A stretch of DNA of 64,000 nt from Escherichia coli O157:H7 (GTDB taxonomy: Bacteria; Pseudomonadota; Gammaproteobacteria; Enterobacterales; Enterobacteriaceae). Every line of letters begins with the position of its first letter. Within the stretch, counting starts at the first letter, position 1. Below are positions 6,001-9,000 of this stretch, one piece after another. The DNA is taken from NCBI RefSeq assembly GCF_013167455.1, contig NZ_CP038328.1, one strand, 5' to 3'. A program made the position numbers.

Positions 6001-9000
6001 AGTAACACTAACGTTTAAGGTGAAAAGTGAAATATGTCCAAACCATTTATCTGGCAAGAACCGTTTCTACAAAATAAAGACGGTACAGAATATACATTAA
6101 TTAGCGATCAACATATTACAGTAACGGAATTAGACGGCGAAGAAGTGATAAAAATCGCTCCTGAAGCATTAACGCTGCTTGCCCGGCAGGCATTTTATGA
6201 AGCCTCTTTTTTCTTACGTTCCGCTCATTTGCAACAGGTCGCCAGCATTCTTAACGATCAGCAGGCCAGCAGTAATGATAAATACGTTGCGTTGCAGTTA
6301 TTACGTAATGCTGAAGTCTCAGCAAAAGGGGTATTACCCAACTGTCAGGATACCGGCACCGCAACTATTGTTGCCAGTAAAGGGCAACAGATATGGACCG
6401 GAGGTAACGACGCCGAAGCCTTAAGTAAAGGCATTTACAGTACTTTCCAGGAAAATAATCTGCGCTTTTCACAAAATGCGCCGCTGGATATGTATACCGA
6501 AGTCAATACGCAAACCAATCTCCCGGCGCAGATTGATATCAGCGCTGTCGCTGGTGATGAGTACCATTTTCTCTGTGTTAATAAAGGGGGCGGCTCCGCC
6601 AATAAAGCCGCGCTTTATCAGGAAACCAAATCCTTATTGCAACCAGAAAAACTGACCGCATTTTTAATCGAAAAAATGAAATCGCTGGGCACCGCTGCCT
6701 GCCCGCCTTACCACATCGCCTTTGTCGTCGGAGGGCTTTCAGCCGATCAAACCTTAAAAATTGCCAAGCTGGCCTCAACGAAATATTACGACAATTTGCC
6801 CACCAGCGGAAACGAGCAGGGACAAGCATTCCGTGATATTGAGCTGGAAAAAGTGTTGCTCGAGGCCAGTCAGCAATTTGGTATTGGTGCGCAATTTGGG
6901 GGTAAATATTTCGCTCATGATATTCGCGTCATTCGTCTGCCGCGTCACGGTGGCTCTTGCCCGATAGCTATGGCGCTCTCCTGTTCTGCCGATCGCAATA
7001 TCAAAGCAAAAATTAACAAACACGGTATCTGGCTGGAAAAACTCGAACACAATCCGGGGCAATATATTCCAGCCTCACTGCGGGAAGAAAATCACGCGCA
7101 ACATGTACAACTGGATCTAAACCGTCCGTTGCGTGACGTGATGCAGGATCTCGCCAGATTACCAGTAGGCACCCGCGTGTCGTTAAGTGGTCCCATCGTA
7201 GTGGCGCGCGATATCGCCCACGCCAAAATAAAAGCGCGGCTGGATAGCGGCGAACCGATGCCGGAGTACCTGAAGCATCATATTGTCTATTACGCTGGCC
7301 CGGCGAAAACACCGGAGAACATGGCCTGCGGTTCACTGGGTCCAACCACGGGCGGTCGAATGGACGGTTATATCGATACCTTCCAGGCGGCTGGCGGCAG
7401 TCTAGTGATGTTATCGAAAGGTAACCGCAGCCAGCAGGTCACCGATGCCTGTCACAAACATGGCGGCTTCAATCTGGGAAGTATTGGCGGTGCAGCTGCG
7501 TTACTGGCGCAAGAATATGTCAAAAGTCTGCGTTGCCTGGAATACCCGGAGCTGGGTATGGAAGCGGTGTGGATGATGGAAGTGGAAAATCTGCCCGCAT
7601 TCATCCTGGTAGATGATAAAGGCAATAATTTCTTTAGTCAGTTTGAGCAGCAACACCGCTGCGCCAGTTGCCCTGCGGGACATTAAGGAAAATGAATGGA
7701 AGCGCGAATTTCAACTGAACGGCATGTGCAGCGCCAACAGAAATTGAAGGAACAGGTCGATACGCGCGTCGCGGCGGCGATAGAGAAAAAAGGGATCTTG
7801 ATTGTTTTCACCGGCAACGGCAAAGGGAAATCCACTGCCGCGTTTGGTACTGTGACGCGCGCGGTGGGTCATGGCAAAACGGTGGGGGTTGCGCAGTACA
7901 TCAAGGGGCAATGGGACAACGGCGAATACAACCTTCTCCAGCCGCTGGGGGTTGAGTTTCATATTATGGGAACCGGTTTTACCTGGGAGACACAGAACCG
8001 GCAAGCGGATATCGACGCGGCGAAAGAGGTCTGGTCGGAAAGCAAACGGATGCTGGCTGACAAGCGTTACGACTTAGTGGTGCTTGATGAGCTGACCTAT
8101 ATGCTGGCTTACCATTATCTGGATACCGAAGAAGTGATCGCTTCTCTGCAAAACCGCCCGGCACAACAAAGTGTCATTGTCACCGGACGCGGTTGCCACA
8201 GTCAGATATTAAAAATGGCAGATACGGTCAGCGAAATCCGCCCCGTCAAACATGCTTTTGATAACGGCATTCAGGCCCAGCCGGGTATCGACTGGTAATA
8301 ACTGCGCCTGGCATCCCGCCAGGCGCAGGTTTTACATCTCCTGCGGTACGACCGATTTCGCCAGCAACCATTCACGAAATTGCTGCAAGTGCGGTGAGTC
8401 AGACTTCTCTTCCTGCCACGTCATAATAAAACGATTACCGGTACGAATAGGCACATCACAGGGAATCACCATATCGCCACTATCCAAATCATGTTGAATA
8501 GCGAAACGTGGTAACAGCGCCACGCCGAGATTAGAGCGCACGGCGGCAATCAGCATTGAAAGCAAATCGAAACGTGGTCCGTTGTTGACCAGCGGACTGC
8601 TAACGCCAGATAAAGCAAACCACTCTTCCCAGCCAGTAATACGGGTGCTTTGATGCAGAAGTGGTAACTCAGTAAGCAGTTCTGCCACTGACAGTTTTTG
8701 ATCGGACATTGCAAGCAAACTGCCGCTGCATACCGGCAAAATCTCCTCTTCAAAGAGATATTCTACTTCCGCCCAGGGCGCGCAAAAATTTTCGCGCATA
8801 ATGACAGCATCGTACTCCCGATTAAGAAAATCGCCGTTATTAGCTAAAGAATGAATATTAACAATAATATCGGGATGTAACTTTGTGAATTCATGTAAAT
8901 TTGGGATTAACCAGTGGGTACTAAAAGTAGGATTAACGGCAAGTTCAATAACCTGAACCGTAGGCTGCCAGGTCATAATGGTATTGGTATCGCGTTCCAG

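Follow-up and report, generated by a model that had tools for sequence, protein, structure and literature searches.

Probable last two cistrons of a glutamate-breakdown operon in Escherichia coli O157:H7: the mesaconase gene fumD and a CobA-type adenosyltransferase paralog

Escherichia coli O157:H7 carries, side by side, a further class I fumarase gene and a further corrinoid adenosyltransferase gene, and the question is what these two paralogs do there. We addressed it in a stretch of 64,000 nucleotides of contig NZ_CP038328.1 (assembly GCF_013167455.1), referred to below as the window. A preliminary description had read the two genes as second copies with pathway-specific roles, the hydratase as a likely mesaconase and the BtuR-like protein as a supplier of adenosylcobalamin to a mutase. 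They are indeed additional copies, as the O157:H7 chromosome has three places matching fumD and two matching the cobA-like gene. The best explanation, in which we have high confidence, is that fumD and cobA are the last two cistrons of a methylaspartate-pathway operon for glutamate breakdown, glmS-glmL-glmE-mal-cmlA-cmlB-gltP-fumD-cobA, with FumD acting as mesaconase and the CobA-type enzyme as adenosyltransferase for the mutase GlmES.

The layout of the locus is consistent with this reading. The window aligns collinearly with positions 851417-787418 of Sakai; the 8 mismatches over its 64,000 bases all fall outside the cluster, and all nine ORFs of the operon are intact in O157:H7. All of the operon genes in the window lie on the + strand. 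At its start is glmE, encoding methylaspartate (glutamate) mutase subunit E (111..1556; TIGR01503 equivalog, 866 bits against a cut-off of 390); the annotation of the identical O157 locus places glmS and glmL immediately upstream, beyond the window edge, in the order glmS-glmL-glmE. It is followed by mal, encoding 3-methylaspartate ammonia-lyase (1556..2797; TIGR01502 equivalog, 543 bits against 286; Pfam MAAL_N and MAAL_C), whose product, mesaconate, is the substrate of FumD. Next come a cmlA-like gene of the AtuA/DUF1446 family (2801..4171) and a cmlB-like gene with Pfam domain DUF4387 (4168..4485), overlapping by 4 nt and corresponding to the large and small subunits of citramalate lyase. 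A dicarboxylate/amino acid:cation symporter of the GltP/DctA family (4625..5926, with the PGAP start at 4646; Pfam SDF, E 3e-102) scores under the cut-offs of both the GltP and DctA equivalogs, and is presumed to import glutamate. The pair under study ends the series: fumD (6034..7686, 550 aa) and the CobA/BtuR-type ATP:co(I)rrinoid adenosyltransferase gene (7696..8298, 200 aa; 'cobO' in RefSeq), both with ATG starts and both called identically by RefSeq/PGAP. Only 9 nt separate the fumD stop codon from the cobA start, with a ribosome-binding site (AGGA) that overlaps the stop. glmE and mal lie 3.2-5.9 kb upstream of fumD on the same strand, a linkage also found in 24 Enterobacterales loci.

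A strong, GC-rich hairpin (8302..8328; 11 pairs, 9 of them G-C) occupies the space between cobA and a convergent LysR-family regulator gene (8332..9237, - strand; Pfam HTH_1 and LysR_substrate), and is likely the terminator at the operon end. No terminator-like site was found in the gltP-fumD interval. The scan for sigma-70-like promoters before fumD gave no + strand match in 5927-6033 and is uninformative, as it returned fewer sites than the shuffled control. The LysR gene, a candidate regulator of the cluster, accompanies it in 24 Enterobacterales loci. Cobalamin riboswitches and other B12-linked RNAs were searched for with Rfam across the operon and 1.2 kb upstream of glmS, and none reached gathering score. 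The sole Rfam matches in the window, naRNA4 and ES036, both lie away from the operon. The whole island sits between sucD and cydA, directly beside sucABCD; in K-12 the same slot is occupied by unrelated mannosylglycerate genes.

The hydratase belongs to the class I fumarases. Both Pfam domains of the family are matched over their full length (Fumerase PF05681 at residues 50-325, E 1e-74; Fumerase_C PF05683 at 331-536, E 2e-78). The protein passed the NCBIfam equivalog NF011921, 'class I fumarate hydratase', over residues 1-550 (1287 bits against a cut-off of 1060), and stayed below the cut-offs of the FumA model (924 < 1105) and of the other class I fumarate hydratase model, NF011920 (921 < 1094). 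It is 68% identical to FumA and 67% to FumB, while FumA and FumB share 90%, so that FumD branched off before the FumA/FumB duplication. The ORF, the alignments and the full-length domains together bear out the class I fumarase paralog that had been claimed. Among solved structures, the best match is the Leishmania class I fumarate hydratase 5L2R (E 4e-210). FumD shares residues C104, C223, C317, Q105, D106, R144, R392, T438, T439, R442 and K462 with both FumA and FumB, and these residues also align with 5L2R; the motifs CQDTG, GPTT.GR and KGNRS are likewise the same in all three E. coli proteins. Going by the published LmFH structure, we take the three cysteines to be ligands of the [4Fe-4S] cluster and assign roles to the Asp of CQDTG, the Thr of GPTT and the Arg and Lys residues, the last as substrate binders.

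The claim that this hydratase is the likely mesaconase proved correct, and it was already known. fumD is identical to Sakai ECs_0757 over 1653 of 1653 nt, and the ECs0757 protein was purified, assayed and named FumD by Kronen & Berg (PLoS One 2015; PMC4682846). These authors reported kcat/Km values of 2 x 10^6 M^-1 s^-1 for mesaconate and 7.5 x 10^5 M^-1 s^-1 for fumarate (their Table 2), so that catalytic efficiency with mesaconate is 2- to 3-fold above the fumarate value. The enzyme was active under anoxic conditions only, with Fe2+/thiol reactivation, and reached a Vmax of 671 U/mg with fumarate; its Km for fumarate was 0.9 mM, against 0.09-0.21 mM for FumA/FumB (PMC4682846). Mesaconate is also a substrate of FumA and FumB, which hydrate it with 4% and 19%, respectively, of their own kcat/Km for fumarate (PMC4682846).

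The neighbouring ORF, claimed as a BtuR-like paralog, is also what it was said to be. It is nucleotide-identical to Sakai ECs_0756, and its product matches Pfam CobA_CobO_BtuR (PF02572) at residues 31-200, covering profile positions 1-172 of 172 (E 5e-64), and passes both TIGR00708 cobA (246.6 bits against 167.75) and NF004637 (295.6 against 185). It shares 68% identity with Salmonella CobA (PDB 1G5R), with which it aligns end to end (E 2.5e-88), and 67% with K-12 BtuR; BtuR and Salmonella CobA are 89% identical to each other. The P-loop is retained as GNGKGKST at residues 40-47, corresponding to Salmonella residues 36-43 with a conservative T42S change from GNGKGKTT. A GFTW motif at 94-97 corresponds to Salmonella residues 90-93, which include Phe91 and Trp93, and the DELT and TGRG motifs are retained as well. 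From the structural literature on Salmonella CobA we take it that the P-loop is a modified one, and that the Phe91/Trp93 pair enforces four-coordinate cob(II)alamin. The gene has a place in print beside fumD, drawn as "CobA, cob(I)alamin adenosyltransferase" in Fig. 5 of PMC4682846, so the pairing itself is already in the literature. That Fig. 5 legend label was its only appearance in the searchable literature, where no adenosyltransferase assay for ECs0756/Z0894 was found.

We next consider how the two genes are distributed. Of 5426 complete E. coli genomes, 1121 have both, and searching with either fumD or cobA alone (at least 95% identity) returned the same 1122 records, that is, co-occurrence within the species is complete. 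The whole 9.3-kb block was present in 1118 complete genomes of diverse lineages at 95-100% identity, and fumD was never found in E. coli without the glm-mal-cml block. The housekeeping counterparts are near universal, with btuR in 5422 of the 5426 genomes and a class I fumarase gene of the fumA/fumB type in 5425, at a median of two places per genome. Across species, cobA directly neighbours fumD in 20 of the 24 Enterobacterales loci with fumD that could be scored, and in Yersinia the pair has been relocated to the other side of the operon, still together. In Escherichia sp. E1V33 only a C-terminal remnant of cobA is left, and three Enterobacterales clusters with 75%-identical FumD (L025, L027 and L029) lack cobA altogether; the clusters of Morganella, Hafnia and Budvicia have neither gene. 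In 10 clusters of distant phyla a FumD-like gene (43-52% identity) stands after cmlB, and all 10 non-enteric clusters with a FumD-like gene lack cobA. The description of the adenosyltransferase as "dedicated" therefore stands only in part: it is paired with fumD in 20 of 24 loci, but is truncated or absent in 4 of 24 and missing from 10 of 10 non-enteric clusters. These losses make cobA an accessory and not an essential part of the system. Neither gene is strictly required, since FumA and FumB hydrate mesaconate and nearly every E. coli has BtuR.

Both genes are under strong purifying selection. For fumD and cobA alike, dN was 0.07-0.14 and dS exceeded 1.8, giving dN/dS < 0.1 for each, a value that is a bound only as dS is saturated in most genus-level pairs. 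The CobA copies of the cluster are 80-86% identical to each other and 64-69% identical to housekeeping BtuR/CobA, and 128 of 200 positions are invariant within their clade.

The intervening genes would supply the remaining step. The cmlA-like protein gave a full-length match to chain A of PDB 9ERQ/9EVF, 'Citramalate lyase, subunit A (cmlA)' (E 1e-291), and the cmlB-like protein matched chain B, 'Citramalate lyase, subunit B (cmlB)' (E 5e-57). According to a preprint that uses the Raoultella planticola enzyme (Cml/cmlAB) as a citramalate lyase, it converts citramalate to pyruvate and acetate. Our literature search on DUF4387/DUF1446 and for a primary CmlAB paper yielded nothing beyond PMC4682846 and this one preprint. 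We had entertained the AtuA-like/DUF4387 pair as an uncharacterised missing step, and dropped the idea as both proteins match the PDB entries named CmlA and CmlB. With these matches the proposed pathway is complete.

We therefore propose the following sequence of reactions. The AdoCbl-dependent mutase GlmES would convert glutamate to (2S,3S)-3-methylaspartate, which Mal would deaminate to mesaconate. The oxygen-sensitive FumD would then interconvert mesaconate plus water and (S)-citramalate, a step that published enzymology has demonstrated for the identical protein. CmlAB would consume the (S)-citramalate made by FumD, judging from its ~90% identity to the solved, named enzyme. While the operon is expressed, the CobA paralog, presumably co-translated with FumD, would most likely add to the local capacity to adenosylate cob(I)alamin, whether imported or repaired, and thereby to provide GlmES with adenosylcobalamin; it would act alongside the reactivase GlmL, much as PduO and EutT serve their own operons. 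We infer this role from homology and conserved motifs, from the gene's position in the operon, its co-inheritance and the purifying selection on it. That the paralog likely supplies adenosylcobalamin to the mutase is the straightforward reading, and it agrees with the intact motifs, the operon shared with glutamate mutase and GlmL, the constant co-occurrence with fumD in E. coli and the selection acting on the gene.

Several other readings of the pair were weighed. FumD could primarily be a spare fumarase of the TCA cycle or its reductive branch, placed beside sdh-suc, with its mesaconase activity no more than the promiscuity of class I enzymes. It does still turn over fumarate, with a Vmax of 671 U/mg, FumA and FumB show the same side activity (PMC4682846), and the island directly adjoins sucABCD. 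However, the higher efficiency with mesaconate and the raised Km for fumarate (PMC4682846) point the other way, as do the strict association of fumD with the glm-mal-cml block in E. coli and the FumD-like genes after cmlB in distant phyla. In addition, unrelated mannosylglycerate genes fill the sucD-cydA slot of K-12, so adjacency to suc reflects an insertion site and not a function. We regard a spare fumarase as highly improbable. Somewhat less remote, though still very unlikely, is that the whole cluster, fumD and cobA included, is a silent or decaying relic in O157:H7 with no present function. Kronen & Berg found no condition in which O157:H7 expressed the cluster and no growth on glutamate with or without cobalamins, and in strain ATCC 700728 they saw neither methylaspartate ammonia-lyase activity nor any stimulation by glutamate under all conditions tried (PMC4682846). 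Against decay stand the nine intact ORFs, the conservation of the 9.3-kb block in some 1118 complete genomes of diverse lineages and the full activity of the enzyme made from the O157 gene (PMC4682846).

For the adenosyltransferase the alternatives carry more weight, though we consider both doubtful. In one, the CobA paralog is active but redundant: BtuR covers the job, and the extra gene has no pathway-specific role and is kept by linkage within the island. The near-universal presence of BtuR in E. coli agrees with this, as do the clusters that are otherwise intact with cobA truncated (L006) or absent (L025, L027, L029), its absence from every non-enteric cluster sampled, and the failure of added cobalamins to unlock growth on glutamate (PMC4682846). 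Yet hitch-hiking alone would not keep a 200-aa ORF intact across such divergence, with synonymous sites saturated, dN/dS < 0.1 across genera and 128 of 200 positions invariant; nor does it sit well with an adjacency to fumD that persists in 20 of 24 loci and through the rearrangement in Yersinia. The other alternative goes further than our own reading, making the CobA paralog a specialised adenosyltransferase, which might hand AdoCbl directly to GlmS/GlmE as part of a repair cycle that involves GlmL, or might differ in corrinoid or reductant preference to suit the anoxic gut, with 20 clade-invariant substitutions (T42S and A88G among them) as possible determinants. This is a speculative idea, but if true, it would give the first known case of a CobA-type enzyme that serves one mutase alone. 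We thus favour the methylaspartate-pathway operon with FumD as its mesaconase and the CobA paralog as a likely supplier of cofactor. A B12-dependent pathway, complete from glutamate to pyruvate and acetate, would then exist in most O157:H7 strains and in about one fifth of E. coli genomes, and this could be a source of carbon and energy in the gut.

Compared with known systems, little here is new. The 2015 paper (PMC4682846) already gives FumD its name, describes its purification and kinetics, and depicts the adenosyltransferase gene beside it. Our gene is the FumD gene of Kronen & Berg, with the same neighbours including 'CobA', and FumD itself does not differ; to the published account we add only distribution, clade-specific substitutions and the selection analysis. 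FumD resembles FumA and FumB in its single two-domain chain, three cluster cysteines, catalytic motifs, oxygen sensitivity and hydration of both fumarate and mesaconate. It differs from them in belonging to a separate NCBIfam equivalog (NF011921), in an inverted substrate preference and in clade-specific changes that include I111T, L169I, Y193A, A307G, A440G and P487A. Clostridial MesAB and the mesaconase of Burkholderia xenovorans catalyse the same reaction and are also relatives of class I fumarases, and Clostridia use the same pathway (PMC4682846). Clostridial MesAB, however, is split into alpha and beta subunits and clustered with a CitDEF-type citramalate lyase, whereas FumD is a fused chain found with a CmlAB-type lyase; independent origins were inferred by the authors (PMC4682846).

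The CobA paralog shares fold family, length, P-loop and the GFTW, DELT and TGRG motifs with Salmonella enterica CobA and E. coli BtuR (PDB 1G5R, 4HUT). It belongs to an orthologous group of its own, inherited along with the glm cluster, is extended by 4 residues at the N-terminus, and is embedded in an operon, whereas the housekeeping gene lies in a yciK-btuR context. Its 20 clade-invariant substitutions relative to both housekeeping enzymes include T42S in the P-loop, A88G by GFTW and Y196W at the C-terminus. PduO and EutT are adenosyltransferases encoded within the pdu and eut operons, together with an AdoCbl-dependent enzyme and its reactivase. The design logic is the same here, with an operon for an AdoCbl-dependent enzyme bringing its own adenosyltransferase and its own reactivase (GlmL), although the glm cluster encodes no dedicated cobalamin reductase. 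PduO and EutT, however, belong to unrelated protein families, whereas the operon copy described here is a CobA-type paralog of the housekeeping enzyme.

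The two ORFs were found exactly where the preliminary description had placed them, on the same strand and with the same lengths: fumD (6034-7686, +, ATG start) encodes 550 aa and the cobA paralog (7696-8298, +, ATG start) encodes 200 aa. The ATG of cobA is 9 nt away from the TAA stop of fumD (7684-7686), and an AGGA ribosome-binding site ahead of cobA overlaps this stop. A GC-rich hairpin with an 11-bp stem (8302-8328), directly 3' of cobA, separates the pair from a LysR-family gene (8332-9237) that is convergent with fumD-cobA. The operon starts with glmS-glmL, just outside the window, and continues with glmE (111-1556), mal (1556-2797), an AtuA-like (DUF1446) gene (2801-4171, +), a DUF4387 gene (4168-4485, +), a GltP-like transporter gene (4625-5926), fumD and cobA. 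Neither the operon nor the region upstream of glmS contains a cobalamin riboswitch that reaches the Rfam threshold. Two other RNAs gave Rfam gathering-score matches: naRNA4 (RF02564, 88 bits) at 16290-16360 (+), between sucA and sdhB, and ES036 (RF02751, 75 bits) at 33741-33783 (-), elsewhere in the window.

Over all of its 64,000 bases the window runs collinear with 851417-787418 (reverse strand) of strain Sakai, with 8 mismatches, none inside the cluster; fumD and the cobA paralog are nucleotide-identical to ECs_0757 and ECs_0756, respectively. Many E. coli O157:H7 chromosomes carry the 2265-bp fumD-cobA stretch at 100% identity. In Sakai, the slot between sucD and cydA is filled by the nine-gene glutamate cluster, the LysR gene and two hypothetical genes (Sakai 841514-855965; window 1-9900), while in K-12 W3110 (765471-771880) it holds mngR-mngA-mngB. 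The sucD-cydA interval is a replacement site. Unrelated to fumD-cobA, the fimbrial usher gene ybgQ is annotated as a pseudogene in Sakai (window 22599-25049) and an ISEc1 (ISAs1-family) element adjoins rhsC/ybfC (window 35909-43408).

We found that FumD carries both class I fumarase domains fused in a single chain. With 1287 bits it clears the cut-off of the NCBIfam equivalog NF011921 (1060), and it falls under the cut-offs of the FumA model (924 < 1105) and of NF011920, another class I fumarate hydratase model (921 < 1094). The cluster cysteines C104, C223 and C317 and the CQDTG, GPTT-GR and KGNRS motifs are invariant relative to FumA and FumB, and all of them also align with 5L2R, a class I fumarase structure from Leishmania (E 4e-210). 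Substitutions at residues 111, 169, 193, 307, 440 and 487 are fixed in cluster-linked fumarases, unlike FumA, FumB and the Leishmania enzyme. I111T, L169I, A307G, P487A and the replacement of Y193 by a small residue recur in the distant cluster-linked homologues, in all or most sequences; A440G, adjoining the catalytic GPTT, is confined to the enteric FumD clade. As candidate determinants, these substitutions might make room for the methyl group.

ECs0757 was named FumD by Kronen & Berg (PLoS One 2015, PMC4682846), who cloned the gene of O157:H7 strain ATCC 700728 and purified the protein under anoxic conditions. Its kcat/Km was 2 x 10^6 M^-1 s^-1 for mesaconate versus 7.5 x 10^5 for fumarate; FumA and FumB hydrated mesaconate with 4% and 19%, respectively, of their own catalytic efficiency for fumarate (PMC4682846). 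Mesaconate is the preferred substrate of FumD, an oxygen-labile Fe-S hydro-lyase, and the suggestion that the hydratase is a likely mesaconase is borne out by direct published kinetics on the identical protein. The same study found no condition that gives expression of the cluster in ATCC 700728, and the fate of citramalate was not known at that time (PMC4682846).

The AtuA-like protein matches the chain named "Citramalate lyase, subunit A (cmlA)" in PDB 9ERQ/9EVF over its full length (E 1e-291; about 90% identity, estimated by eye), and the DUF4387 protein matches "subunit B (cmlB)" (E 5e-57). No paper characterising DUF1446 or DUF4387 was found in the searchable literature, and the pair was considered as an uncharacterised missing step; this idea was dropped because the PDB entries already name both as citramalate lyase subunits. 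RefSeq labels them "acyclic terpene utilization AtuA family protein" and "DUF4387 domain-containing protein" (window 2801-4485, +), and Sakai mis-annotates them as "3-methylaspartate ammonia-lyase" and "acyl-CoA synthetase". Because the pair matches CmlA/CmlB, the operon would encode a complete route, from glutamate via methylaspartate, mesaconate and (S)-citramalate to pyruvate and acetate, with FumD catalysing the third step (mesaconate to (S)-citramalate).

The CobA paralog is a full-length CobA/CobO/BtuR-family protein, which passes TIGR00708 (247 bits, cut-off 168) and aligns over its entire length with Salmonella CobA (1G5R; E 2.5e-88). Its P-loop is kept as GNGKGKST, T42S being a conservative change, and GFTW (corresponding to Phe91/Trp93, Salmonella numbering), DELT and TGRG are also kept. 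We take the functional roles of the conserved residues in FumD and the CobA paralog from the published structures. The physiological reductant of Salmonella CobA is flavodoxin, and fldA (flavodoxin 1; 59928-60458, +) lies in the same window, ~52 kb from the cobA paralog; as fldA is a core gene, this is almost certainly a coincidence.

Both proteins were compared with the housekeeping enzymes. Three places on the same O157:H7 chromosome match fumD and two match the cobA-like gene. Of the complete E. coli genomes, 5422 of 5426 have btuR and 5425 have a fumA/fumB-type class I fumarase gene, the latter at a median of two places per genome; as had been assumed, fumA/fumB and btuR exist elsewhere in E. 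coli. Alignment also upheld the assignment as class I fumarase and BtuR-like paralogs: FumD is 68% identical to FumA and 67% to FumB, and the CobA paralog 67% to K-12 BtuR and 68% to Salmonella CobA. Since FumA and FumB share 90% identity, and BtuR and Salmonella CobA 89%, fumD and the cobA paralog are true paralogs from old divergent lineages, not recent duplications. The cluster-borne CobA copies make up a separate group, 80-86% identical among themselves and 64-69% to housekeeping enzymes. For both genes dN was 0.07-0.14 with dS saturated, so dN/dS is below 0.1 and both are under strong purifying selection.

The pair occurs together in 1121 of the 5426 complete E. coli genomes (20.7%); fumD alone and cobA alone retrieved the same 1122 records at at least 95% identity, and the entire 9.3-kb block was found in 1118. 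One of the ~1122 copies of the cluster is plasmid-borne. We also used tblastn (E <= 1e-10, query coverage >= 50%) to score every cluster protein in 80 GlmE loci from one-genome-per-species collections. An intact adjacent cobA was found in 20 of the 24 scorable Enterobacterales loci with fumD, including Citrobacter, Klebsiella oxytoca, Raoultella, Salmonella arizonae and diarizonae, Lelliottia, Buttiauxella, Pluralibacter, a divergent Enterobacter and two Yersinia species, where fumD-cobA is relocated to the operon's other side but still together. One locus, Escherichia sp. E1V33 (L006, 9417-11374), keeps a C-terminal cobA remnant (residues 114-200); its cluster also lacks the gltP-like gene. 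Three (L025, L027, L029) lack cobA; there a 75%-identical FumD is followed directly by the LysR gene. In Morganella, Hafnia and Budvicia (L021, L023, L024, L026, L030, L031), glmSLE-mal-cmlAB-gltP is present, the clusters end after the gltP-like gene, and neither fumD nor cobA was found within 10 kb; these species must therefore depend on BtuR and their housekeeping class I fumarases to run the pathway. Ten distant-phyla clusters have a FumD-like gene (43-52% identity) immediately after the DUF4387 gene, and a CobA-type gene is absent from all ten. In this survey mal was accompanied more constantly by the AtuA-like/DUF4387 pair than by fumD-cobA; the former pair follows mal in all Enterobacterales loci and across many distant phyla, though not in Firmicutes-type loci. 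Given this survey and the purifying selection, the cluster of Enterobacteriaceae carries fumD-cobA as a conserved two-gene addition, and the cobA paralog is maintained by selection yet can be lost.

FumD and the neighbouring cobA are already known: the Fig. 5 legend of PMC4682846 lists "CobA, cob(I)alamin adenosyltransferase" and the LysR regulator among the cluster genes. That paper mentions the adenosyltransferase nowhere else, and no other paper found in the searchable literature names ECs0756 / Z0894. The CobA paralog could be specialised or simply redundant. Its sequence and context suggest that it would adenosylate cob(I)alamin, be co-expressed with the mutase, and top up or regenerate AdoCbl for GlmES beside the reactivase GlmL, which lends support to the earlier proposal that it probably supplies AdoCbl to the mutase. 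The arrangement proposed here for the CobA paralog and GlmL is the same as the known operon-borne one of PduO in pdu and EutT in eut operons.
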